Under the pieces are notes generated by a model. That model had not been told where the DNA came from and did not search any database. It was given only the letters and a program-made list of their open reading frames with translations. Shown here in pieces: positions 1,523 through 31,400 of a stretch of 32,052 nucleotides of DNA. The translations under genes were made by a program, and so were the position numbers. Position 1 is the stretch's first letter. Each line of letters opens with the position of its first letter. This stretch comes from Reclinomonas americana ATCC 50394 (taxonomy: Eukaryota), in contig PS015767.1 of assembly GCA_048213135.1 (NCBI GenBank), forward strand, positions 19,920 through 51,971. The letters are read 5' to 3'.

Positions 1523-4500
1523 TCATGACGCTGGGCGCGGCGATTTCGGCGGTGGCGGCAATGTCTTGGCGCGCTTCTCGGCCGCCACCTCCACCGCCTG
1601 TCTCCGCCGCTCGAGCATGGCTGCAAGCTCGCGCTCCTCCAGGCGCCGTCGCTTGTCCATGTTGCGAATTGTTGCTCGCATCTCGGGTGTGGTCCTCGTG
1701 TGCTCCTGCAGCAGCGTGAGCTGGCGCAGCGCACTGCCTGAATACTCGGCGCACCGTGCCAATGGCATTCGTTTGACCGACGTCACACCCGTGGCCATGT
1801 CCACCTCCAGCGGTTGTCGCAACTGGCTGCCCTCCATGTCGGCTGCCGACACTCGTCCCACATTGTGATGCTTGAAGCCACCGCCGTTGACGCGTGGGCG
1901 TACTCGTTTCTCCGGGCACAGTACGAGGGGATCATCGTGACTGAGTGGAGCGCACACAGTCTTGTACTTGCGCGCCAGTTGTGCCGCACTGGCCTCCCAG
2001 AAGCGTGACTGCAGCAGGTCCTGCTCAGCTTGCGCCACTCCGGCGTCTCGATCCTTCAGTGGCTCCAGGTCTGAGAGGGAGTCAGCCACACGGAGAAGAC
2101 AAGACGACGGCCACACACAGCACGTAACATCGATGCAACGGATCCACCGATGTGGCGCGCAAGTGTCGCTTGACAGGACCCTGCGTCAGGCGCGAGCTGC
2201 CAATGGTGGTTGAGGCTGCTGATTGTGGTCGATCGCTGGGCAGCGAACGACCGGTCGTGCGTGCCGAGGAGCGTGAGCGCGCAGTGGCGGCCGACTGAGC
2301 GGCCGAGAGCACAGCTGTCATTTTCGGTGACAGCAGCATGGGGTCGTGGACATCTAGTTTGCCGTCGTCGACGACAACGCCGTCGTCGTCAACCTCCAGG
2401 ACCAGCAGCAGGTCGTCGGCCTCCTGCGTTTTTGTCTTCTTCCTCGTCGTCGTCGTCGTCTTCTTCTTGGTCGACGCCTTGCTCTTTGCTGAGCTCTTGC
2501 TTCTAGACGTTGAGTTCGGCGCCGATTCCTGTCTTCCCCCTGATCCGTCGCCACCTTGCGGCGACTCAATTTCGAGCTGACCCAGTGCCTCCAGGTGCAT
2601 GTTGGTCAACTCGGTCTTGAGCGACTGCAGGCTGGACAAGTAGCCGATGGTGCTGCTGTTGGCTGTCTGCGGCCGACTGCGTCGGCTGCTGGCTGTGCGT
2701 GGACGACTGCTGTTGGTGTGCGCCGACGAGAGTGTGGAGTTTGCCGAGGGCGGACGTCGCATTGGTGACGACGCTGTCTTGAGCATGTCGGCAGCCGGCG
2801 CCAGGTTGACGTCCGAGATTTGGTTCAGACGATAGGGTGAAACGGTGGCCAGCGACGATAGCAATCGCGGTGGCAGTTCTCCATAGTGGATCTGCATCAC
2901 GACAAAAGTGAGCCAATGCAATTGATTATGAGATGCATCGCCACTCTCGACGCAACGTCGGCCAGCTCCGCCATGTGCTTGATGTTGAGGACAGCCGTAC
3001 CACTGCTACGGCAGAGTGAGATGCCGTACACAGACTCTTTGGGAGCGATGAGGGAACGCAACGGTCGCGTGGCAGAAGCCGATCGAGCACGCTTGCTGGT
3101 GGCGGCACTGGCTGGCGCCTGTGAGGCCGTTACACTGCGAGGAGTTGTTCTAGCTTGAGAGAGGCGATTATTTCTGGAAGAGAGAAGAGGGACGGCGCGT
3201 AACTCTTCGCCCGCTCGATGGCGCTGCTTGTTGCTGGGCGAGATGATCGGAAACGGAAAGTCGATTTGGCTCAGGATTTTCATCTCCCGCAACAAGTCAC
3301 CACGAGTAAAAAGTGCGCGCTGTTGTGTCTCCAGTGTCGCAGCCTGTTCGGTCTGCAACATGCAACTTTTTCCGTGAGCAGCTATCCGTGGAGAAATGTG
3401 CGCGCACGCCGCCGTACCTGCGACGCCTGCTTTGTCGAGCGCACAACGGTGCTCTTGATGGACTTTTTCGTCTCCACCAGCGAGTTGGTGCCCGACATCG
3501 TGGACAGATCGGCCAGCAGCGAGTTGGCCCACTCCTGCACCATGTCGTTGTCGATCAACAGGTCTTCGTCGTCAAGATCGATTTTCATCAACGACCCCTC
3601 GAGGGGCGCCACCTCGTCCTGGCCCGCAACCGTGGCTGGTGACAGTATTCCGCCGTGCTGGGGCCTGTCGTCTTCGCCGGCCACCTAATGCACCGGTCAG
3701 CTACACATCGGAAGAGTACAAGGAGGCAGGCGACAGCCTCTCCAACCTCGTCATCGGCCACACTGGAATCCAGCTCCGACACATCGAGCATGTGACGGGC
3801 GGTTGCATGTCTCACAAGCCCCGTGAGCTCTGCGTGCATCACAGTGGCGCGTCAACCAGAAACCACTGCTACTGCCTCTCCTCTTCATCCTCCACTCACC
3901 ATTGGCGACCAGGGCCACCGCATGGGTCACTCCAGCGGCCACCATGAGCACCATACGCCCGAGAAATGCACGCACCGGCCGCGGCACCTCCACCACGTCG
4001 AGCATGCGGCCGTAACCGAGCTGACCCGAACTTCCCTCACCCCACGTAAACACACGCCCCAAGTCTACGCCGGCACACGGGTCACACAACTCGACTCGTG
4101 TGGAGTGGGTGACGCACATCGAGGAAAGCACGCGCAACGCAACTGGTGAGAGCGCACGAGAAGCGAGCACCGCACGCCACCTGCACAACGTGATGATTGC
4201 GCAACAAGTTGACAGCCTGCGGTGTCTGCTGCGGGTGCAGATTCAAGATCCCCAGCTGGCCGTAGTTGTTTTCGCCGCACGCAAACACCCGTCCGTCATC
4301 TGTCGCAAATCCAACTGAGCGTCAATCACGAAGAGGAGACCCTACACGCGCAAAAGAAACCTGTGCACAATACGGTGTGCGCTTCGCCTGCGGCTACCGA
4401 GACGAAGCGTGCGTTGCTGACGGATATGCGTTTGGGATCGAGACTGCGATGCACCGCGGAGCCGATGCCCAGTTGTCCGCGACTGTTGAGGCCACAAGCA

Positions 4501-5736
4501 TAGGCCTTGCCAGTCTCTGCCAATTGTGTGCGCCATCGATGAACGACCAGAGACGCACGGCTTTGAAGACAGAGGGACGAACCAGTGACAAACACGGTGT
4601 GCATGTTGCCGAGAGCGGCAAAGCTCACACGATCACGAATGGCCGACACCAACGTGGGCGTGAGACGAGAACCGATATTGCCGAGTCCGAGAGCGCCCTC
4701 GGGATTCATGCCCCACGAGAAAGCAAGGCCAGCCGCTGCGTACCGTGACAGTGTGAACTCCAAAGTGAAAGCTACGGATCGATTGGGCGAGCGAGCGCAA
4801 CTCGACACGAGCACATATCGCGCAGGTCCACAGTGGATGGAGCGCACGGACTGCTCCATGGGAATCGACACTTGTCGCGCATCAAAGGGGGCGATCAGCG
4901 GCTCCGCCAGCGCAGCCATGCGCAAGGCCACGGGCGCAACTTGCGGCATCCCGACAACCATGTTCTTGGCTGCACAGTTGAAAAAAAGACACGTGAGAGG
5001 AACACCAAGCAGCACCACCTCGCACGCCTCACGCACTGGGAGACTCGCTGTGCAGGCACCACAGAAGTGTGAGCGGCATCTGCACATGTTTGCAGCGAGA
5101 GAGAGACGGAACCTGAACGACGCCATGAGTGTGTCAGCCCGGATCTTGTCGACCGCCTGCACACGCAGATCGTTCTCCACTCGCTCATCCTGCAGCGCCT
5201 TTGCAATGTCGCTGACCGCAAACTGCCACACCTCTCCCTTGGTCGTCAACACCAGCACGTAGTCACTGTTGCAGCTGACCTGCACGCCGTCGCCACCATG
5301 GATTAGGGAGAGCACGAGAGAGTGAATGTGAGAGCGAGATCACCTGCGAAAAGGTCTCGTTCTGCAGCTGTCGGATCGTGTGTGGAGTCGGCACACTGTG
5401 GAAACCACCCTCGATGCCACCGGCAATGAAGAGACTCCCACTGGCTGTCTCCGCACTCGAGAGTGTCAGAGTCGAAACCGCCGCAGACACACACACACAC
5501 TCTCTCTCTCTCACACACACACATGAGCGCACCAGAGATGGCCACTGTGATCGTGGTGCCTGCGCTGATCCATGTGAACTGCTGGCCGGCCACGGTGTCG
5601 ACCACCGTCGGCACAATCGCGTGTTCCAGGGCGCCCAGTCCGAGCTGGAGAGGTGTGAGTGATGAAAGGGAGAGAGAGTTTGTGCACTGCGCACCTGGCC
5701 CACAGAGTTGTCACCCCACGCAAACAAGTCGCCCAT
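1523..5736 (-). CDS. RCC1/BLIP-II repeat (beta-propeller) protein with long low-complexity C-terminal extension; multi-exon
   Basis: ATG at 5736 gives MGDLFAWGDNSVGQ|LGLG. Further RCC1 repeats: GLAFSWGMNPEGALGLG, GKAYACGLNSRGQLGIG...VAAGEAHTV, GRVFACGENNYGQLG...VACGARFS, GRVFTWGEGSSGQLG...VAAGVTHAV. Exons chain in frame to ...PPPPKSPRPAS* (TGA 1525-1523). Linkage of the C-terminal part is less certain than the RCC1 domain. Confidence 0.8.
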
Positions 5737-5954
5737 GACCAGGGCGAGGCCGTGTCTTTCCTCTCTCTCTCTCTCCTGTGTGTGTGTTTGTACCAATGCA
5801 CAACGGCACGCGTACGAGTTGTTCGCTTAGCGATATCTGATATTGCTTTCATTTTCCGCGCGCGCCCGTATTGTTTCTCTGCTCATAGAGTGGGGGGAGA
5901 GAGCAGGCAGCTCGGTTGCTCGGGGCGGGGAAGGGTGCACGTGACACATTTTTT

Positions 5955-6875
5955 TCAGAGCTTGTACGCGGCGGCCAGCTTGTCAATGGCTTGCAGGAGC
6001 TTCGCGGCCTCGGCCTCGTCGACCACTTGCTGCGCGCGCGCACACACAAATGACATTCGCCCACATGCACCAAAGCACCTATTCTCACAAAGAAGAGGGA
6101 ATATACCTTGCACTTCATGGCCTGTCGCATGGCGGCGTGATGCAGGGCAACGCGCTCCAAGTACGCTCCGCGGTCACCCGCAAAGTCCTCCTCCTTGACT
6201 CGCTGGCACAAAAAGTAGTAGCCGATCCTGCGCACAGCGACGGAGACACAACTGCAGTGTCAGAGAGAGCGAGCGAGGAAGACTGTGCAGAGGCAACACG
6301 GAAACTCGTTGATAATGTGGTCCGCATGCTCCTCCTTGACCGTCACCCTGCATGCAAAGAATCCGCACACAGTGAGACGACAACGGTGACAGTGGTGGAG
6401 CAGCGGTAGAGCACTCTGCTGTGCGCGGACCATCGGACGGCCTGGTTGAAGTCGAGCGGGTTGTGACTGCCGGCCACGTGGTTGATCTCGTGCATGGCCT
6501 TGCGAATCGTCGTCTGCACACAGAGAGAGAAAGGGCGCGTGTGTGAGTGTGCCAGGAGTGCCCACACGGGAGGCATACACACACACACGCACCACGTCCT
6601 CGCGGAGACGAGTGAACCTGCATGTGTGCATTTCGGGTGAGCGAGAGTGCTTTGTGTGCATGTGAGCGAGTGAGACGCACCGCATGCCGTCATTGAAGAT
6701 GCCGCAGGGCACCTGCACATTCGTGTTGTCGCGCATCCATGTCAGCAGAGACGAAGAAGCAGAGCGTGAAGAATTAGATCATGACGTAGAGAACCTGGCA
6801 GTGAGCATGCATGACAAGTGGCGAGTGCGAGACGGCATATGCGCCACCGGCAACCAACAGAGCGAGACGGAACAT
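5955..6875 (-). CDS. sodN: Nickel superoxide dismutase precursor (152 aa: 24-aa leader + 128-aa mature chain)
   Basis: Seven exons: 6875-6795, 6712-6681, 6617-6593, 6513-6431, 6347-6306, 6227-6107, 6029-5955. All introns are GT-AG and phase-consistent. Product: MFRLALLVAGGAYAVSHSPLVMHA-HCQVPCGIFNDGMRFTRLREDVTTIRKAMHEINHVAGSHNPLDFNQAVRWVTVKEEHADHIINEIGYYFLCQRVKEEDFAGDRGAYLERVALHHAAMRQAMKCKQVVDEAEAAKLLQAIDKLAAAYKL*. It carries the Ni-hook HCxxPCGx(Y/F) and the RWVxxKEEHA, YFLxQRVK and AMKCKQ motifs typical of NiSOD. Confidence 0.95.
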
Positions 6876-6885
6876 GGATCGTGTT

Positions 6886-9800
6886 TCACTTGGCGCCTGA
6901 CCACTGGAAGATCAATGCTTTGCTGTGTCGGGAATGGACCAAGTGGATCTCCTCGATCTGCGGCCACTCCAGTTGCACGTGGCGGTACACGGCAAACGTC
7001 ATGCTGGGCGACGCGCTCAGCGAGGTGCTCGAAAGTGAGCCGGGCATCAGCGACGATGACGAGGCAAGCGAGCCGGTGGACAGCGATCCACCAGCCGCAC
7101 CGGCGGCTGCCGAACCGATGCTGCGGGAGGGACGAGTCGCCAGTGACACGGGGCTCACTGTGTGCAGCGTAGAAGAGTGAGAGAGTGGGAGCAAGAGGCG
7201 AGAGGCGAGAGAAAGAGCAACAGACCAGTGGACGGGTCGCAACCGGGAATGCGAAAGTTGACGGCGGCCTTGGACTTGCCAGGCAGCAGGCCCGAAAACA
7301 TGCCAGCCTGCTCCACCTTCCACACCGACAGGTCGGCCTCAAGGTACGAGAAGATGGCCACGTGCTGACCCACGGGTGAGAAGGTCACTGCAGTGACAGG
7401 CGACCGATAACTCTGCGTGGACACGCGTGCATAAGTGACCTCAAAAATCCCACGCTCGTTCATCAACGCGCCGCAAACCTGAATGAGCTGTGTTCTGGCC
7501 GCTGTGCGCAAGTCAAAGATGGAGACACTGCCGTCGGGACAGCCGACGGCCACCTTTTGCGCCTCTCGATGGAACGTCACCATCGGGTAGCTGTGCATAA
7601 TGCAAGCAGAATCAGCATGGCGTGGGCACAAATTCATAGTCGACAACCGCCACGAAACGCATTGATCATGTGCCGCAGTGTGGCCGTGGTGTGATTCATG
7701 CACCGCTGTCGCGTGTTCGGGAAGTTGGGATCTAGAGAGCGCACAATGTCGCCGACAATCGGGCCCAGCTGCCCGACCAACACGCTGGCATTCTATGAAC
7801 AGAGATTTGTGAGTGACGAGCAAAATCACCACATTTCGTCCTTTTCCGATCAGACCTTCTCCACCACAGCCTTGATGAGCTCAATGTAGCTGACGTAGAG
7901 CAGCAACTCGTTTGGTTGAGTCATCTGTGTGCATCAGTCGGTGAGCGTTGCGTCGAGGGGCACAAGTGACAAAAGTAGAATATGCACGAACCGGTGCGCT
8001 CAGCGTGTCAACCAACAGTTTCGGATCGGTTTCCGCCACGCACAGCAGTGCTTGCATGGCCTCAGCAGCCACACGCTGCTGCACCGGCTGTGGCACCTTG
8101 ATTGGACTCGCTCCCGGCGACTGTTGCTGCTGTTGGAATTCGTGCTTCGCAAGCACCGGTACCGCCAGTCGGAACAGATGCGTGATGAAGGCAGGCGTAT
8201 CGGGAATGTCTGTGAGAAAAGAAGTGAGTGGCAGTCAGACAACGACGGTGCTCTGTGTATTGTGGACGCAACAATACTGCCAGGTGGAAAAGCCGGCGCC
8301 GAGAATCGAGATGGCAAACGGCTGATAGTCGCCAACTCGATTGCACAGACTCATCAATTCCAGTGCAATGAAGCTCGCAATCCTGCATCGCGGTGAGTAA
8401 CTGGCACACTCGCACTCAGTGCATCGCATGGGGGGCCACGCAACTGCTGGCTCAGGCACTCCTCGTGCTCAGACACAATCGCGCCAACAGCAACCACCAC
8501 GGAATCCTTGCGCGTGCCAGTGCTCCACGGCGACAGCACTGTGCCACAGCTCAGCTGGTTGCACGAACAGACAAGTACACGCACACACACACAATGCACG
8601 CAACATTCTTCCGTGTACACATCGGTAACAGTGCGTAGCCGAGAGATCCTCGTGTTGCGCGAGAACTGCATCAGATGCGTCCATGCACTCTCTTGCACGT
8701 GTGCTGTGTTTGGAGCGTAGAAGGTGAGCACAGCACGAGAATGCATGCATCACTGTGATGGGAAATCGCACGATTTGAATCCTTCAAGCAGTCGGCGAGG
8801 ATGACAGCAGACGGTGGCACGTAGTTGGGGTACGTGTCGGCGAGTGTGGTGGAGAAGTACTCGGACAGAGAATGCGCCACCGACTCGTACGCTGCTCACG
8901 CAATTCGGAACACATGACCACCAAGTGAGGAACAGCCTGCAATCAACTTCAAGCACACAAAAACACACCTGGAATCTTGCCGACGGCCTTGATGAGCGAG
9001 GAGCAGCATGTCAGCATGTGCGCACTGAGTTGAGGACACAGGCCGAACGGGCCGAGTCGCCGACACACGTTCGGGCAGTACAAGGTGTGTGAACCCCATT
9101 GTCTGCACAGCAACAACACGGTCGTGAGAGACGCATGCACACTGTATACACAACGAGCAAAACGCGCCCTTTGAATCCGAATGATGAGGACACAGCGGGA
9201 GTCACCATGGCCAACTCGTCCAGCAAATTGGCCGTGTCCTGTGCACACCAGACAGTCAGCATCTGCCTGAAACATACCGCGCACACTCCATCCGCACCAG
9301 AGGCATGTACTGGCGAACAAACACGTAGGAGCCTGCCGCTCTCCACGCAATCCACTCCGCTACGCCCTCCGACACGGGTCCCTCGAAGGAAGCAGAACGC
9401 TTCAGTGCTTCGTTGGCTAGCTCCACGCTGCGTCCGATAAAGCCACGCGACTGCAACCACACCAATGAGCACCTCAATCATGTAATCAACAGCACGCCAC
9501 ATTTCGCACATTGACGAGCGTCAGCAGCTGGCCAATGTCCACAATAAGCATCGTGGCTGATGAGCTCCAGCCTGTGACAAAGCACGCAGTGTTTGTTTAC
9601 ACACAGGAAGCGATGAAGCAGTTTTTTTGCGCGAGTTGCCACAGTACCTTCAGCACCTGTCAGCACGCTCTCTCCTCGCAGCAATCCACCTTCGTAGCTC
9701 GCACTCCGTGAACCCATGGTGTCGCGGAACCCAAAGTTGGTGTGCCTTGAGCTGCCGGCAAAAGGAGCAGTGAGGTATGAGCGACCAGTGTCACAGAGGC

Positions 9801-12800
9801 ACAGCAGCAAGTGACCGACCTGCCAAGTCCCTCCCACTGCTCAATGAGATCGGTGGCAAGCTGGCCGGCAACCTTGCGCTCCAAAATGCCCGTGGCCAGC
9901 TACTCAACAAATCAGAGAGACACAGCGAGTGAATACACCATGCGCACCAATGCAACGTACACCNNNNNNNNNNNNNNNNNNNNNNNNNNNNNNNNNNNNN
10001 NNNNNNNNNNNNNNNNNNNNNNNNNNNNNNNNNNNNNNNNNNNNNNNNNNNNNNNNNNNNNNNNNNNNNNNNNNNNNNNNNNNNNNNNNNNNNNNNNNNN
10101 NNNNNNNNNNNNNNNNNNNNNNNNNNNNNNNNNNNNNNNNNNNNNNNNNNNNNNNNNNNNNNNNNNNNNNNNNNNNNNNNNNNNNNNNNNNNNNNNNNNN
10201 NNNNNNNNNNNNNNNNNNNNNNNNNNNNNNNNNNNNNNNNNNNNNNNNNNNNNNNNNNNNNNNNNNNNNNNNNNNNNNNNNNNNNNNNNNNNNNNNNNNN
10301 NNNNNNNNNNNNNNNNNNNNNNNNNNNNNNNNNNNNNNNNNNNNNNNNNNNNNNNNNNNNNNNNNNNNNNNNNNNNNNNNNNNNNNNNNNNNNNNNNNNN
10401 NNNNNNNNNNNNNNNNNNNNNNNNNNNNNNNNNNNNNNNNNNNNNNNNNNNNNNNNNNNNNNNNNNNNNNNNNNNNNNNNNNNNNNNNNNNNNNNNNNNN
10501 NNNNNNNNNNNNNNNNNNNNNNNNNNNNNNNNNNNNNNNNNNNNNNNNNNNNNNNNNNNNNNNNNNNNATACACGTCGCACCTGCCAAATGTACACTTCG
10601 CCCATGAGACACTTGACCACGAGGAAATCATACTCGACTTTCCAGTACAGTCGAATGATGGGGGATGCGTGCCCACCGAGGACATGTAGGCTGTGTGGAT
10701 CGGTGGGACATGAAATGGTCAGCGCTCACGTGAGGCGAACCTCCAACACACGTCGCAGTGACGCACCACTGCATCTGATCCAGCGAGTAGATGATCACAC
10801 TGTTGTCCTGCCCGACAGAGCAAAACGTGTGCCGCAGCTTCTTGGAGACGTGCGGTGGAGGGATGGTGAGCGCCGTGACGGCCGCTGCGTGGAAGTAGAA
10901 CGCGCCAAGCTCCGACCCGGTGCTGCAACGAGAACGGGCAGAGCGTGAGATGACTATCTGCAGCGCAGATCCACAACCCAGCACGGACGCACTCGGGATT
11001 CCACACGCGCACGACAAAATCGTCGCCGGCCGACACCACTGCCTTGCTTCCGCGCAGAAGCATTTGGTCCGGAACGGCAAGAAGCGCCGTCACCTGTCCC
11101 TGATGACCCTGTACAACAATGTCTTGCGTCTCGTCTACCATGCTCCGGAAGCGGATGGTGCCGTCGGCTGCGCGACACCTCTTGTGGTCAACAACACGAA
11201 TATCGTGGTTTTGTTACTTGAGAGGCGAAACGCACCGTGCCCAGTGACGTACAGCGGTTCACCCTTGGTGACCGACACGGCAAACTCGCTGGCGGTGGTG
11301 GTGCTCACTGGCTCGCTGGCGGCCGCATCGTACGATGTGAAGCCTTGGTCGATTGAACACACTGCGAGAGACTACGGTCAGTCAACGGAACGAAACGAGC
11401 AGCGCCTGCCATGCACGCAACAGTGCGCTGGCGGCTGTGCGGCTATTGGCGACCCTGCGGCGCTACCATCGGCCGCAGCGCTCATCGAAAACTCGGATGC
11501 TCGCCACGCCCGCACCTCGCCGTGCCCGCTCGCCGCCACCAACAAGTCACCACACAAGTTCCAGAACGACGGTTTGCTGTGGCGAAGCAGCGACACATAA
11601 GTAGCGCACTCCATAAGCGCACTCACGTGAAATACAGTACCTCGCATCGCTTCCGCCATGTAACCGCGCCACGAGCACCGCAGCGGCTGAGCCACTGATC
11701 ACACAATGTTTTCATGTCAGGCGGCAGAAAAATCAATCGGAAAGAGACACAGAAAGCATGGCGTCCACCTTTCTCCGCCCGCCTCGGCGTCGAGTGATGT
11801 TGAGGAGGACGAATCCCTTGGCAGGTCTGAGTCTGACACATCGGAGCCTGCGCGCACACCATTTCTTTGCGAATGAGCCGAAGCATCTCAGTCGCACGAT
11901 TTCTTCACCCAACGGGGTAATTGCACGCAACCAGCACCACCGGCCAATGCTCGTCGTTGTGCCTCTGCGCAACACACAGAGTGGTCGGTCGCTCGGACGG
12001 TGAGCAAACGGGGTTGACGTGATGCATACCTTGCGCAGCGTCATCCAAACGCGTGTCCCACGTGCGCGTGACGGCAGTGGGGCTCGCAACTTTGGCGCCG
12101 ATACTCCGCAGCATGAACCCGAGAGAGAGCGTGAGATTGTAGGTCATTGGGCTCACGCCAACTCGCCGTGGGCGTGAAGATTCGCCTGCCACAGTCAGCT
12201 GGCTCGCCGACGGTGCGCCGCGGACGGCCGTCATTGACAACTGCAAGCGTGCACACTCGTAAGACGCAGGCTGGTTGACACAAGTACGCTGCGACGGCCA
12301 TGCTACGCACCCTGGAGCCCTCCACCACGGCCGGATCAAAGTCGTACACCAGGCCCTCGCCAATCTGCGATCGAGTCAGAGTGCATTCCGCGCAAGTGCA
12401 CACCCGCAGCACTACGCGACGACACCTCTGTGTGCACAAAGCAGCGATGCGCGTCGAGGAAGAAGCCATCGCACAGGGTCTGTGCCGGATCCAACTCCAC
12501 ATCCTCCAGGACGTGTTCAGCGACGAGTGCATAATCCGCCTTGCGGAAGATCTGCGAGCAAAGTGCGCGCGATGCAAGTCAGCAGAGACTCTCTCACACA
12601 TGTGTGCACGTAGGCGCTACGTACCATGAACACGCGCGGATACACAATCAGAATCAGATCGCCCCAACATCGCACAGCGCGCGCCGCATCATCGGTCTCC
12701 ACTTTGCGCGACGGCACGTTCTTGGCAGAACTCCATTCACACAACGTCTGATCCTTGGAGACAGAGATCACAGTCCACGTCGGTCCGCCTACAGCAAATA

Positions 12801-13773: not shown

Positions 13774-16500
13774 ATGAGTGGCAGGCCGATGGAGGTGGAC
13801 AGCGATGGCGGAGGCTCGGGTTCGGGTTCGACAGCGACGTCATCGTCGCGCTCAGCGCGTCGCCGAGAAAAGGTGTGCACTGTCAACCTCTGTGCCTTCG
13901 TTCTTACGGCTCACACATTCTGGCACACACACACAGATGATGGCGCTTGGCCGACTGCCGTCGTTGCCGCTGGATGAGTACGAGAGCAGCAGTCCGAGTG
14001 TCGGCAGTGCCAGCACTGCTGATGATACGCTGGCGCTGACGATTGTGCCGGCGGGCAGTCAGGCGTGGCGGCCATTCACGTTGCATGTGTCGCCGCGCGA
14101 GATGGTGCTGAGCATCAAGCAGCGGGTGGCGGCGGAGCTCATGTGGCCAGGTATGAGATGAAAGGATTGTCGTCACCAACAAGACAAGTGACGACAAAGT
14201 TGTGCGTGCAGTGTATGCGCAGCGACTGGTGGTGTTTGGGCATGTGCTGAGCGACAAGGAGTACATTGGGCCGGCGACGGAGCGTGCACGCAAGGTCATG
14301 CGCGGTCGCAAGTTCTTTGTCAGTGTGGTGCCTACGGGTGAGTGACGGGCGCTGCTTTTCTTTTCTTACCAAGTGCATGCTGATGATATGCTGTTGTTGC
14401 AGTGGCCGTCAACAAGCTGTGGTCGAAGAACGACGAGGAGAGCTCAGTTGTCCCTGGGTCGCGCACCGGAGCGACAGCGATTCGACTCGGGCAACATCGC
14501 GTGGTCGTGTTTGGCGGTGGTGTGTCGCTGTCCGTCTGCGTGTCGGCCATCACACCTCCCTCACACTCGCACTGCAGGCCTTCAAGGCGGATACACGGAT
14601 CGCACAACTCTGTTTGATTCGCGAACACTGGAGGTTGTGGTGTCACGTGTGTGATCACCTCGAGGTCGTTTTGTGACCCGTCTGTGTATGCCTGTGCAGT
14701 GGACTGACCTGGTGACGCGTGGCGAGAAGCCTCCAGCTCGTGCCGCTCACTGTGCGTTCACCTATGCCGGACACATGTACATTTACGGCGGACGCGCGCG
14801 TGATCGCTACTTCAACGACTTGTATCAGCTGGATTTGTTGCGTTCCCGTGGCCTCTGCTCGTGCTCTTGTCGTACGTACATTGACGTGTGCATGCATACT
14901 CGCAGGGACACCAATACGTGGAGTCGTGTGCCGACCAGTGGCGCGCATCCGCCTCCCGGAGCCGGTGTGGTATGTCCTCATTCACTGGTAACAACACGCT
15001 CAAACTCTCGACTGATTGTGGGAATCGGCGGCAGGCCTCGGCACTCCTCGGCGATCGCTTCTTTGTGTACGGTGGCTACGATAAGAGCCACAACACGATG
15101 CAAGAGATGCATTCTCTCAGTTGCGGCTGTTCTTGAGTGGGCGCACAGTTGGGCACAATCGTTCTCACTCCCACTGCACCTCTGTCCTCTGCAGACATGA
15201 GTGCGTTTTACCTGCAAACGTGATCAAGCTTCATTACGTACTCTGCCTTACCTCCTTACCCCCTTCGTGTTTGTTGCAGACACGATGATTTGGGTCAAGG
15301 TCAAGTTGACGGCCGAGCCCGGAGTGCAATCACCCGGCAAGCTCGCCGGCGCCACGTGCGTCACTCGTGTGAATTCGAAGAGTAGCGTGCTCACGATTGG
15401 CAGTCGCTAAATTGCAGCTCACACAATGCAGCCTCACGGCCTGGGGCGACTTCCTCATTCTCTTTGGCGGGCTCGGAGTGACATTTGAGAGTGCGGTGTA
15501 CGTGCTGAACACGCTGATTCTGCGCTGGGTTCGCGCAAAGGCCACCTCTGTTGCGTTCATCGATAGTGTGTAGATGTGTGCGCGTGCGCCGGATTCTACT
15601 CATCGCTTGACGACACAGGGCGACGTGCCGAGTGGGCGCGCCTTCCACTGCGCGCAGCTTGTCGGTGGTCACTTGCTGATTCACGGTGGGAGGAGCAACA
15701 CGACGTATTTCGCCGACTTTTTCTGCCTCCGACTACGTGCGTGATGGATGATGTGGCTTCAACGCAGTCCTCGCTCACTCACTCACTCGTATGCGCGTGC
15801 AGGTGACATGACGTGGAAGCGGCCGCATCTGTATTCAGTTGGCGACTTGTCCGATCGGGTGACACAGTACGGACGACAGCTGGTGCGTGGCTCGCTGCTC
15901 CTCGGTCGCGCCGGCCACATCATGGTACGCCTGTTACCTTCAGTTCTACAATCCGTGCGCTGGTTGGGTGAGATGGTCACACCGTTTCTTGGGCGACCGC
16001 AGATCCGCATCGCGTGCGCCGAGGAAATGGTGATGGAGAACGGTGGCACCCCGGTGGAGAATGGTGCCGACGATGATGACGGTGATGATGCCGCCAATGG
16101 TGCGACAGGAGAGCTGCCGCTGATGGGCGACGGTGACGAGGATGAAGACGGAGCGTCATCGTCCGGAGCTGCACGAAACGCAGCGGGCGAAACGACTCGC
16201 GCGGTGGTCGCAGCCGCTGTCTCCAGAGGTGTGTGGGCGTGCGTGCATACAGTCCACACCTATCTATCGCCTGCGGGAGTGAGACTGATCGTCTTCTCTA
16301 TTTCTCTGCCTGGTACAGCATCGTCGCTGTCTGGCGGTCTGACACGCGGCGCCAACCAGCTGTTCATCTACGGAGGCGACTGCGAGACACAAATCTTCCA
16401 CGACACGACGTTGCGTGGTGGTGCACGCTGCTGACCGTTGTCGCCAATGTGCCACTGACTGGTCTCACACAGCGTGCTTGACACGTTCTTCGACCCATGA
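13774..16500 (+). CDS. Kelch-repeat (KLHDC/RABEPK-type) beta-propeller protein with N-terminal ubiquitin-like domain; multi-exon
   Basis: Starts MSGRPMEVDS...REK|MMALG. UBL-like segment: FTLHVSPREMVLSIKQRVAAELMWP|VYAQRLVVFGHVLSD. Kelch blades: RTGATA...VVVFGG, PPARAAHCAFTYAGHMYIYGG...FNDLYQLDL, FFVYGG, FLILFGG, PSGRAFHCAQLVGGHLLIHGG, RAGH...LFIYGG. Ends VLDTFFDP* at TGA 16498-16500. Confidence 0.85.
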
Positions 16501-20655: not shown

Positions 20656-23600
20656 TCAGGCCTCCTCGCGGCTCTTGAACGCCAGGTACGCGGCTTGAAT
20701 TCTCTCGCCGGCGAGCTGCTCACGCTTAGTGAGACGCCGTGGTGGCGGTGACATTAGTGACGGTGAGCGCTGCGATGCGGAGGCAGTGGCTGGAGTGGTC
20801 GCTGTTGGTGGTGCATTGTCCACATTATCAACATCGATCGCCGCGGGCGACGACGGAGCCGCCGTCTTCTCCACATTGGGTTTGGTGGCCACAGCAGTGC
20901 GCGGGCTGTTGGACTTGGAGCCAGTGGGTGTGCCTGACTTGGAGCCCGACGGGGTGGCCGACTTGGAGGTCGGAGGCGTCGCGGGTTTCGAGCCTGCCGG
21001 TGTCGGAGGCTTCGGGGCGCTCCGTGGCGTTCCTGCCTTGGACGCTGTCGGTGTGGCAGCCTTGGATGCCACCGGTGTAGCGGTCTTGGAGTTCGACGGC
21101 GTGCCGGATTTCGAGCCGGCTGGTGGCTTCTGACCACGCCCGGAAGAAGGCGGTGAAGTGAGGCTTGCGGACGACGTCTCGTGGGCGATGTCATGCAGCG
21201 GCGCCGGCCGAGTGGGAGTGATCTGCGAACGAGTGAGACATGCTGCACTGCACAGGTGTACGGCAGGCATCGTTTACCTCCTCGACTGAGTCTTCGTGAG
21301 CCGCTGCGGATTGCAATGAAGCCGGCGATTTGTCGACTGGTTCCACAGGCGCAGCAAAACTCTGCTGTTGCGGAGGAGACTGCTCATAGCGCGCGCACAC
21401 ACACAAACACACAGAGATGAGAACTTGCAATGTGCACAAGTCAGCACAGATGATTTCACCTTGATTTCCACCGGCGATCGGCCACTGGATCGCGCGCTGC
21501 CATTGCTGCTGCCGCCACCCGTCGCAGTCTGCAACACACATAGTGTAAGCGGGTGTTCGTGTAGACAACGAGTGGAACCCGCTGCAGCTCACCAAATCGT
21601 CGGAGTTGCGTCGTACACTTGCCAGCTGCAGGGCCGCACCGATGCGTTCGGCTGCCGCACGTTCTCGTGGCGTCATTCGTCGAGCCGGCGGCTGCAACAC
21701 ACCGATGAGCGAAAGCGAGGAGCACGAGATATGTGGAGAGAGGAGACACACCGACATCATTGGCGACGACGCATTCGGCAATGGAGACTGCGCAGAAAGG
21801 ACCAACAAATGATCAGCATAACGAAGGCAAGAGCGATTGCGTGGCTCTCCGAGTCAATGCCCACCGTAATTTCAGTTGCTACCTTGCGCGCCTCCTCAGC
21901 CGCCTCCTCCGCAGCCTTGCGAGCAGCCTCAGCTTCAGCGGCAGCAGCCTTGCGTGCTGCTTCTGCTTGTTCCTCTGCAGCCTTGCGAGCAGCCTCAGCT
22001 TCTGCCTCCGCGGCCTTGCGTGCTGCTTCAGCTTTTTCCTCTGCGGCCTTGCGAGCAGCCTCAGCTTCTGCCTCCGCGGCCTTGCGTGCTGCTTCAGCTT
22101 GTTCCTCTGCGGCCTTCCGCGCCGCCTCAGCCTGTTCCTCTGCAGCCTTGCGCGCCGCCTCGGCTTCAGCCTCCGCGGCCTTGCGTGCTGCTTCAGCCTT
22201 TTCCTCGGCGGCTTTCCGCGCTGCCTCTGCTTCTGCTTCCGCAGCCTTGCGAGCAGCCTCGGCTAGTTCCTCAGCGACCTTGCGCGCCGCCTCGGCTTCA
22301 GCAGCAGCAGCCTTGCGTGCTGCTTCAGCCTTTTCCTCCGCAGCCCTCCGCGCTGCCTCTGCTTCTGCCTCCGCGGCCTTGCGCGTTGCCTCTGCTTCAG
22401 CCTCTGCAGCCTTGCGAGCAGCTTCCGCCTCTGCCTCCGCGGCCTTGCGCGCCGCTTCTGCCTCTGCCACCGCGGCCTTGCGTGCTGCCTCGGCCTGCTC
22501 CTCTGCAGCCTTGCGCGCAGCTTCAGCTTCCGCTTCCACAGCCTTGCGCGCCGCTTCCGCCTCTTCTTCAGCGGCCTTGCGCGCAGCTTCGGCTTCTGCC
22601 ACCGCGTCCTTGCGCGCTGCCTCGGCCTGCTCCTCTGCAGCCTTGCGCGCTGCCTCCGCCTCAGCTACAGCTGCCTTGCGAACCGCCTCGGCTTCCTCCT
22701 CAGCGGCCTTGTGAGCCGCCTCAGCCTCCTCCGTCGCGACTTCGCGAGCCGCCTCGACCGCTGCTGCTACTCTGGCCTCCTCCTCAGCGGCCCGTTGGCG
22801 TCGCTGCTGAATCTCTGCGAGTTTTGCCTGCTGCACCGAGCGGACAATATCCTCGGTGATCGCCTGACGCATGGCCGCGCGACGCTGTCGAATAGCCGCC
22901 GCTTTCTCCTCCTGCACCGCACGTACAGCGTCCACGGCTGCCTGGTGACGGTCGTCGTCCTTGGCGTCGCCGTCTTCGTGCCGACGCTGGGGTCACACAT
23001 CAATTAGGGTGAGGCGACGAAAAGAAAATGCTGATGAATACTAGGAGGACGCACCGCTGATGCTTGCCGTTGTTGCTCTTCCACAACAAACAGTGGAACG
23101 GGAGGCGACACGCGATCGACTTCGATTGCCAAGTTCTGTGACACACACACAGACAAATGAGAACGACAATCACGGGCATGCGGCACACACACACACAATC
23201 GCACACACCATTGGTTCCTCCAGCGTGAGATCAGAGAAGCTGTCGTTCGTGGTGTCGTTCTTACCGCGGCCGGCCGCAGATGCCGGCGACAGGAGCGTAG
23301 CAGGAGAGACTGGAGCCGACGACGCGGGCACCGCCGCCGAACTCGCTGGCTCCTCCACGCCGTGCACATCGCCACTCTCCCCAATCGACTCGAACTCTTC
23401 CTCGAAAAGCCCATGGCCCGAGGCCTCAGCTGGCGGCAGCGACTCGGGTGGACCCTGTGGCGGCGCCTCCACGAACATTTCGTGGCTACGCACGTCGCCC
23501 ATGACATGAGTCATTTGCCGTGGCTTGGACGATGCTTCGGGAGCAGCGCTGTGCGACGGTGCAGCAGCTGCCTTTGGCGCAGTGGAGCGAACGGCTGTGC

Positions 23601-26600
23601 CAGTCACGTTGCTCGCCGGCGGCGGTGCGGAAAGCGCCGCTGGCGCTGCTCCATGCTTGTCGTGTTCCGATTCCTCCAGCACCTCGTCGATCAGACCGCC
23701 AAAGAGCTGCAGCAGAGAGTGGGTGGGTGAGCAACACGTGACACTGATTGGGCAAGCGATAAGTGACCAACCCCCGAAGGTTTCTTCTTGGCCGCAGTCG
23801 CCGACGCAGTCGGCTTGTGCTCATCGTGTGGTGGTGCAGCAACAGGGGCAGCAGTTTTCTTCGATTCCACATCGCTGTCCGAGTTCTCCTCGTCGGATTC
23901 GGAGTCAGAGCCATGCTTCTTGTCTTTCTGCTTGCCACCCTTCCTCTTCTTCTTCCCCTTGTCGTGCTTGCCACCGTGTCCCTTGTCGGAGGAGGGCGTC
24001 TGCGAGGCAACATCAGTGAGCAATGGGCTATCGCAGGAGAGGAGAGACACAAAAACAATCATCGTCACCTTTGCGTGATCCTCATCGCTGGAGTCGGAAT
24101 CGCTGTCGCTGTCGTGCTTCGCCTTTGGCGAATGCTCGTCATGCTTCGCTGCTGGCGGCGCAGGCGGATGCTCGTCGTGCTTCGCAGCTGGCGGCGCAGG
24201 CGGGTGCTCGTCGTGCCTCGCAGCTGGTGGCGCAGGCGGATGCTCGTCGTGCCTCGCAGCTGGCGGCGCAGGCGGATGATCGTCGTGCTTCGCAGCTGGT
24301 GGCGCAGGCGGATGATCGTCATGCTTCGCAGCTGGTGGCGCAGGCGGGCGGTCGTCGTGCTTCGGTGCCGGTGGCGCAGGCGGGTGCGCTTCATGTTTCG
24401 GCGCCGGTGGATGCGGATGATCATCATGCTTCGAAGCTGGTGGCGCAGGCGGATGCTCGTCGTGCTTCGAAGCTGGTGGCGCAGGCGGATGATCGTCATG
24501 CTTCGCAGCTGGCGCAGGCGGGCGGTCGTCGTGCTTCGCAGTTGGCGGCGACTGCGGATGATCATCGTGCTTCGCCTTTGGCGCATGCTTGTCGTGCTCC
24601 GCCTTCGGCGAGTGCTTCTCGTGTTTCGAATCAGGCGAGTGCTTGTCGTGCTTCGCCTTTGGAGAATGCTTCTACACGCAACATGTGAGCATCTGAGGCG
24701 AGCGAGTGCGCGAAATTAAGCGTCGTACCTTCTTCTCATGGTGGTCTTCGTCGCTCGAATACGAGTCACTGTCGTGACTGCTGTCGTCTTTCTTGTGCTT
24801 TGCCGCCACCGGAGCCTGTCAGGTGCAGCCAAGGTGAGACATACACACACACATGCACCAAAGTAAGCAGCACTGTCCGTCAAATCGTGTACCTGAGCAG
24901 GAGCCGGCGCAGGCGCAGGTGCTGGTGCAGGAGCAGGCGAGTGATGCACCTGGGTGACGACAGGCTGCGCGGGAGTAACCGGTGTCTGCCGCGTGTCACA
25001 GTGTGGTCAGCAAGCAACAAGAACCACGTGGGGGCGGTCAGTCATCACGGACCTTCGCATGATGATCATCATCGCTCGAATATGAGTCGCTGTCGTGATG
25101 ATGCTTCTTATCGTCATGCTTCTTTTTCTTCTCCGATTCCGCTGCCTTGTCCTGTGAAACCATGCATGTCAACGCGAGAAGCACAACATACACGTGAAGA
25201 GAAGAATCCGCGTACGCACATGATGCTGATGATGGTGGTCATCCTTCTTGGGAGACATGTGCTTCCGCTTCTTGTGGTCGTCGTCGTCGTCGTCGCTGTC
25301 GTCGTCGTCACTGCTGTTGTGGACTACGAATGTCCCGTCACTGGTGGCCTCTGACAACCTGCGCCGCGCCGCCAGTGGATCGGTCGGTTGACGGAGACCC
25401 TCGTCGGAGGCGTGGTGCGCGTGGTCGGAATTCTTCAGTGCTTTTTCGATACGGGCCAGTGGGTCTGGTCCGTCGCTACCCAAGTCCAGCGAACCTGAGG
25501 GGCGATGATGCTTGCCGCCATTCGTCGGTGTTGAGTCTGACGAGTCTCCTGGAGGGTGCGGCGGCGGCACTGGAGCCGGGGCGGGGACAGGGGCCTTCGG
25601 GGCCTCTGGGGATTGCGGGTGCTTGTTGGCATGTGAGGGCGAGGTCTTGTGCTCCGGCTGCTTCGGCGCCTCTTCGGCTGGTCGGCGGCCGAGGAGGGTC
25701 TCCCAAGCGTCCTTGCCATTGGGGCCTTGACTGTCGTCGTTCATACTATCCGGGCTGTTACGACCGGAGCCGCCATTGGCCACTGTGGAAAAAGGTAAGC
25801 ACGAAGCAACGACATGCATGTATGCACACGGGTCCACGCAACGCTGTGAGAGGCTCGAGCGCGCGGCCTTGTCGATCGGCGTCACAGTAAAGTATGGCAC
25901 GAACTCGCCGCGAGCAGCGACAATGCGCAGAGTCTCGCGCAGTCGTGTCTGCTCCTCCTGCTCCTGGAACACGGTGCGCTGTGCGCTGTACACGCGCCGC
26001 ACAAAGGCATTCTCCTTGCCAGTCTTTTGTGCCTGAGTGTTACAAGCGTCTGAGTTTTGTGGCATGCCCTCACCCGCGCACACGCGTTCACGTACCGCCT
26101 GCAAGTGTGTCTGCGGCAGCAGGAATGGATTCCGGCGGGCCTTCAGTCCCATGAGAACCGAGACGTGAGTGCGATCAAAGAACTCGAGATCAGTCTGCAT
26201 CTTCTCCAGGTAGTTCATGCCGTTCCACAAGAATGGCTGCTTGAGTGTAAGTCCCTCCTGTGCAATGCATCGTGAGTACCATCGCACCCAGTCGCGACTC
26301 TGCAAGCATTCGACGAACCCGCCAGTGGATAATCGCCTCAGTGGTCTCCAGTGTGGCCTTGCGCACTGCGGACAACGCATTTTCGATCTCGTGACTAAAC
26401 ACGCGTGTCTCCAGCGCCCTGCGCATCATCACACCAGCAGTTAGTACAACAACGCACAGTCAGAGAGACCAACGTGAGCACACACACACACAACTGCGTA
26501 ATGTCCGACGACAGCTCCAACAGGTGCGTCAGGTCGCTGAGCCGCTGCTCACGCAGCTCAACGGACTTGAGGACGTCAAGGGTCCGTGATCGATGCTGCA

Positions 26601-28491: not shown

Positions 28492-31400
28492 TAGGAGGAG
28501 GANNNNNNNNNNNNNNNNNNNNNNNNNNNNNNNNNNNNNNNNNNNNNNNNNNNNNNNNNNNNNNNNNNNNNNNNNNNNNNNNNNNNNNNNNNNNNNNNNN
28601 NNNNNNNNNNNNNNNNNNNNNNNNNNNNNNNNNNNNNNNNNNNNNNNNNNNNNNNNNNNNNNNNNNNNNNNNNNNNNNNNNNNNNNNNNNNNNNNNNNNN
28701 NNNNNNNNNNNNNNNNNNNNNNNNNNNNNNNNNNNNNNNNNNNNNNNNNNNNNNNNNNNNNNNNNNNNNNNNNNNNNNNNNNNNNNNNNNNNNNNNNNNN
28801 NNNNNNNNNNNNNNNNNNNNNNNNNNNNNNNNNNNNNNNNNNNNNNNNNNNNNNNNNNNNNNNNNNNNNNNNNNNNNNNNNNNNNNNNNNNNNNNNNNNN
28901 NNNNNNNNNNNNNNNNNNNNNNNNNNNNNNNNNNNNNNNNNNNNNNNNNNNNNNNNNNNNNNNNNNNNNNNNNNNNNNNNNNNNNNNNNNNNNNNNNNNN
29001 NNNNNNNNNNNNNNNNNNNNNNNNNNNNNNNNNNNNNNNNNNNNNNNNNNNNNNNNNNNNNNNNNNNNNNNNNNNNNNNNNNNNNNNNNNNNNNNNNNNN
29101 NNNNNNNNNNNNNNNNNNNNNNNNNNNNNNNNNNNNNNNNNNNNNNNNNNNNNNNNNNNNNNNNNNNNNNNNNNNNNNNNNNNNNNNNNNNNNNNNNNNN
29201 NNNNNNNNNNNNNNNNNNNNNNNNNNNNNNNNNNNNNNNNNNNNNNGGGGAAAATTTTATGACAGGACCAACGTACCTCGTCGCTCAGCGAGCTTGCCAG
29301 ATTGTTCAACGCCACCAGCGTGGACGGGTGCGTGGCACCGAGGAGCGTGCGTCGGCCAGCGAGACACTGCCGCAACAAGGTACTGGCTTCGACGTGTCGT
29401 TGCAGAACGGTGAAGACGCTCGCCAGCTTCGCCATCGTGGCCAGCGTCTGCAAATGCTGGTCTCCCAACAACTTGCGACGACCGGCCAGAGCCTCCTCAA
29501 ACACCTGCGCCGCCTGCTCGTACTGCTCGAGATGCGACAGACAGGCAGCGAGGTTGGACATGGCAGTCAGCACCACCGGGTGCATGCTGCCGAACAGCCG
29601 CTGCGCCACCGCCACCGACTCCTGCAACATGGCCAACGCCTCGTCGTGCCGCGAGTGGCGCATCAACTCCGACGCCATGTTGTTCATCGAGGCCACCGTG
29701 TCGGGGTGTCCGGCCCCGAGGACCTTGATACGCGCATCAAGAACCTCCTTGTGCAACTCGGTGGCATCGGCCGTTCGACCGAGAGCCGTCATGCACAGCG
29801 CCAAGTTGTGCGCGGTCATGAGCGTGGACGGATGCTGCGCACCAAGTACTTCACGGCGCAGATTGAGGCAGTCCGAGTTCAATTGCAGTGCCAGCTGCGC
29901 ACCAGTGCCATCAGCACAACACACGAGGCAGCCCAAGTAGGAAAAAACACGCAAACCTCAAACTGCCCGAGCTCGTATCGCGCCTGCGCAAGGTTGTGCA
30001 AGCACGACAGCGTCGTCGGGTGCTCGGCGCCAAGCATGCGACGCGAAATCATAATGCACTGCTGCAAGATGCGGGTGGCTTCGGGAAGGCGCGCCAGTTT
30101 GACGTACGCCGCAGCCACATTGTTGAGCGAGGCCAGCGTATCCACGTGATTGTCGCCGAGGGCGCGACGGCGAATCTCGAGACACTGCTCGTGCAGTTTG
30201 CAGGCACGCTGATAATCACCACACGCAGCGTACGCCAGTCTGCGCGACACCAAACAGAGCGTGAGAAACTGCGCGATCCAATCCATGCGACTGCCACGCA
30301 CCCCAGATTGTTCAGCGTCGGCACCGTGGAGTCGAGGGCCTCCTCGCCAAACTCCCGACGGCGCACCTCCAGGCACCGCTCAAACACACGCACCGCCTCC
30401 TCCAGATGCCCCTGCGCGAGCAGCGTGCTGGCCAAGTCACTCATCGACGATAACGTGTCGGGGTGCACGTCGCCGAGCAGCTCCGTTCGCAAGTGCAATG
30501 CCAGTCGCTGCAGGCGCTCGGCGGCGTCCAGTTGCCCGCCGCGAAAGAGCAAGCGGGCCGTGTTTGACCACACACTCCACTGCAGCGTGGCATTATCGAT
30601 GCACACAGAGTGGTTCTCGATGACCTGCACACAAACGCACAAACGCACACACGCGGTATTACATCACCAGCACTTGGCGCAGACAACACACGTGCGTCAC
30701 TCACTTGTCCGATACGCAGCAACAGATCGCCGACCTTGGCGTGCTTGGCGCTCTGGCCCAAGACGAAGAACACATACAGCTCGATGAAACGCGTCCAGTG
30801 CGCCACCGCGAAATCGCTGACATGTGGAAACTGCTCGAGCGACGTCCACAAGAATAGCAGCTGCGGCTGGAAGGTGACCCAGATCTGATCGTCGCGCTTG
30901 AAGGCCAGACGCCACACCGCGGTGATCCACTGTCCCAGCACAACACAGGCGTTCTTCACCAAATGGCGACAGTTGTAGGGGCACAGTCGCTCAAACAGCT
31001 TCCAGAACTGCCCGTGCAAGTGGTACGACGGGCTTCGCGGTGGTGGCTGACCGAGTGCCAGCTCACGGGCCTTGTCTCGCGCCTCCGCCGCTCCCTGATT
31101 TTTCGCCGGCGCTGCTTGTGCATACTCACTGCCGACGGCAGTGTCGTCGCCGGTGGGTGTGATTCCCTCCTCGATTTCCGCCGCACGCTGCGCGTGTCAC
31201 CAATGGCCTCAATGTCAGGGTGCGCGTAGAGCACAGAAACGTACATGAAGGCTGCTTACCAGTCGCATGAGGGCGCGTTCCAGTAGCAGCGGCTCTTTGC
31301 GTACGGCATCGCGCACCAGCGCAAAGCGACGTGAGCACAGACTCAGATTTGCCGCCTCGGTGTCCACCAGCAACAATACGCTCTCTTGCATCAGCTTCTC

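Follow-up and report, generated by a model that had tools for sequence, protein, structure and literature searches.

A stand-alone nickel superoxide dismutase gene with six predicted introns and a signal-peptide-like leader in Reclinomonas americana

Introduction

Nickel superoxide dismutase (NiSOD) needs a free histidine as its first residue, and every lineage that acquires the gene must therefore solve the exposure of this residue. Bacteria expose His1 with SodX or apparently with a general signal peptidase, and most algae do so with a ubiquitin fusion. The subject of this report is a NiSOD (sodN-type) gene that appears to carry six introns and no ubiquitin. It lies on the minus strand of a 32,052-nucleotide (nt) stretch of Reclinomonas americana ATCC 50394 (assembly GCA_048213135.1, contig PS015767.1, positions 19,920 to 51,971). 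This stretch is referred to as the window, and all coordinates are window positions.

The Sod_Ni subunit is a four-helix bundle that assembles into a hexamer. The NiSOD of Streptomyces is made with a short, non-secretory propeptide cut by SodX, and both the classical Streptomyces enzymes and those of cyanobacteria use this protease. In the common eukaryotic NiSOD, His1 is exposed by cleavage after the Gly-Gly of ubiquitin (PMC4460010, PMC6332867). The literature records ubiquitin-NiSOD genes in 116 eukaryotes and stand-alone copies in many lineages (PMC6332867), so the patchy eukaryotic occurrence given in the first-pass annotation of this locus is an understatement. The reported stand-alone NiSODs include those of Guillardia theta, Bigelowiella natans, haptophytes, Oxyrrhis, and nine diatoms (PMC6332867, PMC4460010). 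Transcripts lacking ubiquitin are described as mostly deeper-branching than fused ones (PMC4460010).

By description, the present gene is like the stand-alone eukaryotic NiSODs in being nuclear, in having no ubiquitin, in falling outside or deeper than the fusion clade, and in being close to bacteria. The passages on those genes (PMC6332867, PMC4460010) do not describe their leaders or intron positions. The gene appears to fit this already known class of deep-branching stand-alone eukaryotic NiSODs. With the algal ubiquitin-NiSOD fusions it shares the HCQVPCGIF hook and the Cys of an L-C-Q-R-V-K motif, and some of the fusions also bear introns. Unlike them, it has no ubiquitin, and exposure of His1 therefore needs another protease.

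The bacterial comparison group consists of NiSODs with the hook HCQVPCGI[YF][DN] from Planctomycetota, Verrucomicrobiota, Lentisphaerota, Fidelibacterota, and various Pseudomonadota. These match the present protein collinearly over the full length at 34-55% identity, and they share a leader of n-h-c layout that ends in a small residue before His1. A minority of them, including locus L055, have Phe at hook position 9. The bacterial genes are uninterrupted, whereas the present gene has six introns, eukaryotic neighbors, Asn10, and Met at leader position -3. Streptomyces NiSOD (PDB 1q0d), the enzyme characterized by structure and biochemistry, is a distant relative. It belongs to the Pfam family of the present protein and agrees with it in the hook ligands (His1, Cys2, and Cys6) as well as in Pro5 and Gly7; the hooks differ, with HCDLPCGVY in Streptomyces and HCQVPCGIF here.

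Gene Structure

The gene model was made by joining segments on the minus strand, read over positions 5700-7100. The spliced coding sequence (CDS) runs from 6875 to 5955 and has seven exons and six introns. It is 459 nt in length, corresponding to 152 codons plus a TGA stop. In the precursor, a leader of 24 residues is followed by a Sod_Ni domain of 128 residues with the N-terminus H-C-Q-V-P-C-G-I-F. The parts of the gene are as follows.

5955..6875, minus strand, whole NiSOD (sodN-type) gene from start to stop codon, 7 exons, 6 introns, 152 codons
6795..6875, minus strand, exon 1, leader (6875-6804) and His1-Cys2-Gln3 (6803-6795); starts at the first ATG after an in-frame stop (open reading frame (ORF) 6774-6911)
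6804..6875, minus strand, leader MFRLALLVAGGAYAVSHSPLVMHA, signal-peptide-like, with predicted cleavage
6713..6794, minus strand, intron 1, 82 nt, GT..CAG, phase 0, between the Gln3 and Val4 codons of the hook
6681..6712, minus strand, exon 2, 32 nt, VPCGIF (6712-6695) and beyond
6618..6680, minus strand, intron 2, 63 nt, GT..CAG, phase 2, within mature codon 14
6593..6617, minus strand, exon 3, 25 nt
6514..6592, minus strand, intron 3, 79 nt, GT..CAG, phase 0
6431..6513, minus strand, exon 4, 83 nt; alone matches positions 23-52 of our own hidden Markov model (HMM), E 2e-6
6348..6430, minus strand, intron 4, 83 nt, GT..CAG, phase 2, within the conserved Trp50 codon
6306..6347, minus strand, exon 5, 42 nt
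6228..6305, minus strand, intron 5, 78 nt, GT..CAG, phase 2
6107..6227, minus strand, exon 6, 121 nt, the longest exon
6030..6106, minus strand, intron 6, 77 nt, GT..CAG, phase 0
5955..6029, minus strand, exon 7, 24 codons plus TGA at 5957-5955

Each junction was compared with every GT/GC..AG alternative that lies at most 30 nt away, keeps the frame, and introduces no stop; there were 4, 7, 18, 16, 11, and 26 such alternatives for introns 1 to 6, respectively. Scoring used an HMM of 39 bacterial and 26 ubiquitin-fusion sequences. The junctions of the model scored highest at all six introns, with 161.0 bits for the model and at most 154.3 bits for the alternatives.

Intron 1 separates HCQ from VPCGIF by 82 nt of genomic DNA, and the ORF list of the window contains no uninterrupted ORF that spans the gene. 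The first-pass annotation had proposed an intact sodN of 152 codons with six spliceosomal introns, the first of them inside the hook, which would be concealed from ORF-based annotation. This description is borne out in all three parts: the model is coherent and in frame, with GT..CAG ends and the best-scoring junction at six of six introns; positions 6794-6713 part the two halves of the hook; and no single ORF covers the gene.

The window holds a single NiSOD copy, and all NiSOD-like pieces found in six-frame translation are collinear on the minus strand within 5958-6778. Intron 2 has a length that is a multiple of three and contains no in-frame stop. Its retention would keep the frame and add 21 residues directly after the hook, and the resulting protein would probably be inactive.

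Sod_Ni Family Membership

A set of bacterial relatives was collected by scanning bacterial and archaeal genomes with the back-translated hook HCQVPCGI[FY][DN], which gave at least 114 loci. Alignment A1 contains 72 of the listed loci, those with a complete frame and a usable start. Pfam Sod_Ni (PF09055) was assigned to all 72 of these proteins, with a best E of 2.4e-39.

Over its whole length (positions 1-127 of 127), an HMM of the 72 bacterial mature domains aligns to the spliced product at residues 25-151, and the alignment crosses every junction without a gap. The score is 158.9 bits (E about 1e-47); a Sod_Ni match of the spliced product had been set in the first-pass annotation as a test of the gene's identity. 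The first 12 residues of the hook region served to fish the family; without them, the product still scores 124.9 bits against the same model. The best of 2000 shuffled sequences reached 6.6 bits.

The Sod_Ni hook H-C-x-x-P-C-G-x-[Y] is present once intron 1 is spliced out, with Phe at position 9. Among the positions conserved in at least 90% of both the bacterial and the ubiquitin-fusion sets, 23 of 24 are retained. The exception is Asp10, which is Asn in the present gene; among the matches listed, 5 of the 114 bacterial hooks share Asn10.

Single exons searched against Pfam gave one match, that of exon 6 (Sod_Ni, E 0.011, 16.7 bits, cut-off 25 bits), and exon 4 gave none. A search for relatives of exon 6 by three shared five-residue words found none in a large protein collection restricted to proteins of 74-238 residues. 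Searched with phmmer against 1.84 billion representatives, exon 6 returned 0 matches at E<=0.001, the 40-residue query being too short for relatives of about 50% identity. Exon 6 alone gave 0 matches in the PDB and no usable match in the ESM Atlas. The window-type hook pattern had 0 matches in viral contigs.

Judged from its sequence, the gene is a real and intact member of the NiSOD (Sod_Ni) family. It is improbable that the gene is a pseudogene, unexpressed or decaying although intact in appearance, or a product of mis-assembly. In favor of this reading, no close relative was found for gauging selection, and the scaffold, with N runs at 9964-10568 and 28503-29246, has draft status. Set against it are the seven exons, all in frame and free of stops, the 23 of 24 conserved positions kept, the GT..CAG ends at six of six introns, and the gap-free stretch that holds the gene together with both neighbors.

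The Nickel Hook and Intron Positions

Among the matches listed, hook position 9 is Tyr in 103 and Phe in 11 of the 114 bacterial hooks, the search pattern having allowed both. Ubiquitin-NiSOD junctions were fished from metagenomes with a pattern in which ..LRLRGG is joined to HC..PCG. This gave at least 120 loci, from which 84 junction frames were recovered. Again among the matches listed, Phe9 is present in 83 of the 84 junction frames, and 74 of them have exactly HCQVPCGIFDD. Because 83 of the 84 carry it, Phe9 is the normal state in eukaryotic ubiquitin-NiSOD fusions and no peculiarity of the present gene. The first-pass annotation had singled out Phe in place of the Streptomyces Tyr; the residue is as it stated, and its standing as an oddity is lost, given its frequency in the fusions and its occurrence in bacterial hooks.

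Sixteen of the metagenomic ubiquitin-NiSOD frames are cut short after the hook, and seven intron-bearing loci among them were resolved. Their introns occupy five positions (codon/phase): 13/0 in three loci, 7/1 in L197, and 20/1, 20/0, and 25/2. In the present gene, the introns are at 3/0, 13/2, 22/0, 49/2, 63/2, and 104/0. No position is common to the present gene and the seven metagenomic loci, the nearest being 13/0 versus 13/2. Since metagenomic ubiquitin-NiSOD genes also carry introns, intron-bearing NiSOD genes are not unique to this locus, and the intron positions give no sign of shared ancestry.

In L197, a metagenome contig, the putative intron is 201 nt in length and lies within the Gly7 codon. 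It is a second hook-splitting intron at another position.

Phylogenetic Placement

No ubiquitin was found in the window: the best tblastn match of five ubiquitin moieties had an E of 1.4, and none lay close to the NiSOD gene. In place of the ..LRLRGG that is joined to His1 in the fusions, the present gene has ..V-M-H-A before His1, contiguous in exon 1.

The best identities to the sampled bacterial proteins are 53-55%, mostly to Phycisphaerae and other Planctomycetota where named. The top genome match (L055) has 49% identity over 146 residues and also has Phe9. Identity to the NiSOD domains of ubiquitin fusions is 46-50%.

A maximum-likelihood (ML) tree of 66 rows separates the gene from the fusion clade with support 98/97 and from the bacteria with 92/77, and the gene lies on the branch between them. 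A FastTree of 242 rows gave the same position. The bacterial part of the tree sample leans toward one hook type and toward the matches listed first in two scans; the sample is without the published stand-alone eukaryotic NiSODs and without an outgroup. Placement with a Planctomycetota-rich bacterial clade (22 rows) was not rejected by the approximately unbiased (AU) test (p 0.434). When residues 1-12 were removed, the gene joined two Phycisphaerales sequences with a Shimodaira-Hasegawa-like approximate likelihood ratio test (SH-aLRT) value of 77. Phe9 and Cys71 are common to the gene and the fusions, while Arg14, Asp21, and Phe69 are common to the gene and the bacteria.

Because of the 98/97 exclusion and the residues common to bacteria, the gene does not appear to be a fusion gene with recent ubiquitin loss. 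Such a loss within the fusion clade, or a fusion with an overlooked ubiquitin exon, is considered highly improbable, even though Phe9 and Cys71 are fusion-like and the gene is placed adjacent to the fusions when the hook is included. Besides the exclusion and the bacterial-like Arg14, Asp21, and Phe69, the window encodes no ubiquitin, and exon 1 has Ala rather than Gly-Gly before His1 and no AG acceptor there.

A sister relationship to the fusion clade was rejected as a firm result, given the AU value for the Planctomycetota-rich clade and the shift of placement in the tree without the hook. The gene may be sister to the fusion clade, or it may group with Phycisphaerales once the hook is removed. 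A phylogeny, as the first-pass annotation had proposed, places the gene outside the fusion clade, the exact branch varying with the inclusion of the hook.

Leader Sequence

The leader is the most informative feature of the gene and was passed over in the first-pass annotation. Met-Phe-Arg (Arg3) at its start is followed by an uncharged core of 13 residues; Pro19 comes next, and the end is ..V-M-H-A before His1, with Met at -3 and Ala at -1. It is 24 residues in length, with a maximum 9-residue hydropathy of 2.24 and a net N-terminal charge of +1. These values are within the ranges of the 72 bacterial NiSOD leaders, which are 19-44 residues long (median 27) and have a minimum hydropathy of 1.81 and a median of 2.75. 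The bacterial leaders have Ala at -1 in 56 of 72, and Ala (37), Leu (20), or Val (9) at -3. The present leader looks like a Sec or endoplasmic reticulum (ER) signal peptide, as in the bacterial relatives.

The bacterial clade (L001-L114, 72 leaders tabulated) has Sec-type leaders in which a final A/L/V-x-A immediately precedes His1. Its members come from Planctomycetota, Verrucomicrobiota, Lentisphaerota, Fidelibacterota, Myxococcota, and several Pseudomonadota. Three genomes of bacterial relatives were searched for maturation proteases. None of the three has an S26 peptidase adjoining sodN, their S26 peptidases being far from it, and a SodX-type protease (TIGR02754) was above the cut-off in 0 of 3. 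On account of both results, a general signal peptidase is the likely maturase in this clade. The leaders suggest that these bacterial NiSODs are periplasmic and matured by the general signal peptidase. A literature search, with subscription journals outside its scope, found nothing on NiSOD maturation by signal peptidase or, among the titles and abstracts listed, on a secreted NiSOD.

The leader of the present gene could instead be a mitochondrial or plastid presequence, or a SodX-type propeptide cut by an S26-like protease encoded elsewhere, all else being as in the account favored below. Acidic residues are absent from it and Arg occurs once, signal peptidase sites seldom have Met at -3, and SodX is the protease of the classical Streptomyces and cyanobacterial NiSODs. 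This alternative is nevertheless thought unlikely. The n-h-c layout, with Met-Phe-Arg, the 13-residue uncharged core, and a Pro-containing c-region ending in Ala, matches that of the bacterial leaders. Mitochondrial processing usually requires an Arg at -2, -3, or -10, and none stands at these positions relative to the cut that would expose His1. The stretch from the hydrophobic core to His1 is too short to accommodate a transit peptide. As to a SodX-type propeptide, the three relatives' genomes searched lack SodX above the cut-off.

The metagenome contig L121 encodes a precursor with a hydrophobic, signal-like N-terminus, a Ser/Pro-rich stretch, and, of ubiquitin, just the final dozen or so residues (..LHLVLRLRGG), followed by His1. 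It may be a targeted variant in which the ubiquitin tail alone is kept as a cleavage site.

Genomic Context

The NiSOD gene lies in a gap-free stretch together with both of its neighbors, and the nearest N run starts at 9964. The neighbors are as follows.

3751..5736, minus strand, RCC1-repeat gene, downstream neighbor, Pfam RCC1 matches with pieces in different frames
7155..7880, minus strand, upstream neighbor frame, weak WD40 / beta-propeller matches, E 2e-5, below Pfam cut-offs

The RCC1 gene starts approximately 220 nt downstream of NiSOD, with a probable ATG read from the sequence at 5736-5734. Its putative first intron is 50 nt in length (5694-5645, GTGCGC..CCAG), and its best homologue has 38% identity over 35% of the query. 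The WD40-like frame ends approximately 280 nt upstream of NiSOD on the same strand.

By its sequence features, the NiSOD gene resides in a eukaryotic genome and is not bacterial contamination, because six introns interrupt its coding sequence. The first-pass annotation had likewise preferred an acquired gene to contamination. Its view is upheld by the introns, the gap-free stretch, the RCC1 and WD40-like neighbors on the same strand, and the best bacterial identity of 55%. Contamination or a bacterial insert in the assembly would be in keeping with the nearest sequences being bacterial (at most 55% identity, mostly Phycisphaerae and other Planctomycetota). Its probability is practically negligible, since the frame is broken by six interruptions and nothing but the removal of GT..CAG segments of 63-83 nt restores it exactly. 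With no uninterrupted ORF, this candidate is ruled out by the sequence itself.

Five coding pieces were recognized in the window, at 3751-5736 (minus), 7155-7880 (minus), 10719-11213 (minus), 14655-15200 (plus), and 29879-30663 (minus). Their families are RCC1, WD40/beta-propeller (in two places, both weak), Kelch, and TPR_10/TPR_12. All of the pieces are split over reading frames, as expected with short exons. The window contains N runs at 9964-10568 (605 bases) and 28503-29246 (744 bases), which mark the assembly as a scaffolded draft. The introns and intergenic DNA around NiSOD are rich in GT/CA and CT/GA dinucleotide repeats.

Two ORFs encode repetitive proteins (21757-22992 and 23691-24671, both minus). 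One has dozens of AEAEAEAARKAAEE-type units, and the other has KHD[DE]HPPAPPAA units with Ser/Asp-rich flanking tracts; neither has a Pfam family. A frame on the opposite strand (21320-22714, plus) has a low-complexity 'Mucin-like' match alone. No Rfam match or transfer RNA was found in the window.

The Pfam scan of the window covered 76 of 90 ORFs of at least 150 residues and 177 of 180 ORFs of 75-149 residues; short exons would escape it. The other 14 large ORFs overlap or adjoin N runs or were left out. The remaining three small ORFs lie in the NiSOD gene, where 5849-6259 and 6343-6741 were scanned and 6118-6342 was left out. Among the Pfam matches of the ORFs scanned, there was no S26/S24 peptidase family, and no nickel transporter or urease, which would likewise be missed if encoded in short exons.

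Discussion

The account held as reasonably probable is that of a functional, nucleus-encoded, stand-alone NiSOD gene of an intron-rich, GC-rich eukaryote, whose product would be matured by way of an ER signal peptide and would act as a secretory or extracellular enzyme. The leader would serve as the ER signal peptide, and the signal peptidase complex would cleave after Ala24, between ..M-H-A and H-C-Q. His1 would then be the free N-terminus required by the nickel hook, in which the ligands are the amine and amide of His1 and Cys2 and the thiolates of Cys2 and Cys6. The enzyme would be active in the secretory pathway or outside the cell. Such a maturation would be the eukaryotic counterpart of the Sec-type leader cleavage of the bacterial relatives and distinct from the route in which ubiquitin Gly-Gly is cut from His1.

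Several points weigh against this account. The splice junctions rest on homology and splice-site form. Pfam's own model was applied to single exons, and its best result is below the cut-off (16.7 versus 25 bits), the full-length test being a home-made HMM. The profile of the clade matches 1q0d weakly (E 0.0087, over the first 48 residues), which makes structural transfer indirect. The third-codon-position GC content (GC3) of the NiSOD CDS, at 0.80, is somewhat above the 0.65-0.72 of neighboring exons (intron GC 0.556). With respect to the leader, Met at -3 occurs in none of the 72 bacterial ones, and a competing cleavage site exists at residues 12-14, between A-Y-A and V; a cut there would retain 10 additional residues ahead of His1, which would then not be free.

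The origin of the gene would be a bacterial NiSOD with the HCQVPCGI hook from Planctomycetota, Verrucomicrobiota, and neighboring phyla. The transfer may have been common with that of the ubiquitin-fusion clade, or the gene may be a separate acquisition. A more specific version, held tentatively and as rather doubtful, has the gene descend from a pre-fusion eukaryotic NiSOD that had a bacterial Sec-type leader. The secreted enzyme would in that case be an intermediate between the periplasmic bacterial enzymes and the cytosolic fusion enzymes.

The known picture, in which NiSOD is widespread in marine eukaryotes in fused and unfused forms, is unchanged by this gene. What is new is a signal-peptide-type leader in place of the ubiquitin of the common eukaryotic form, and a position outside the fusion clade. 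Exons of 25-121 nt and an intron within the signature motif conceal the gene from ORF- and motif-based screens. Because such features escape these screens, counts of NiSOD in intron-rich eukaryotic genomes are likely too low. The leader suggests the ER signal peptidase as a third eukaryotic route by which His1 is exposed. If true, the nickel enzyme would be located in the secretory pathway or extracellularly, where superoxide is encountered by marine microbes.

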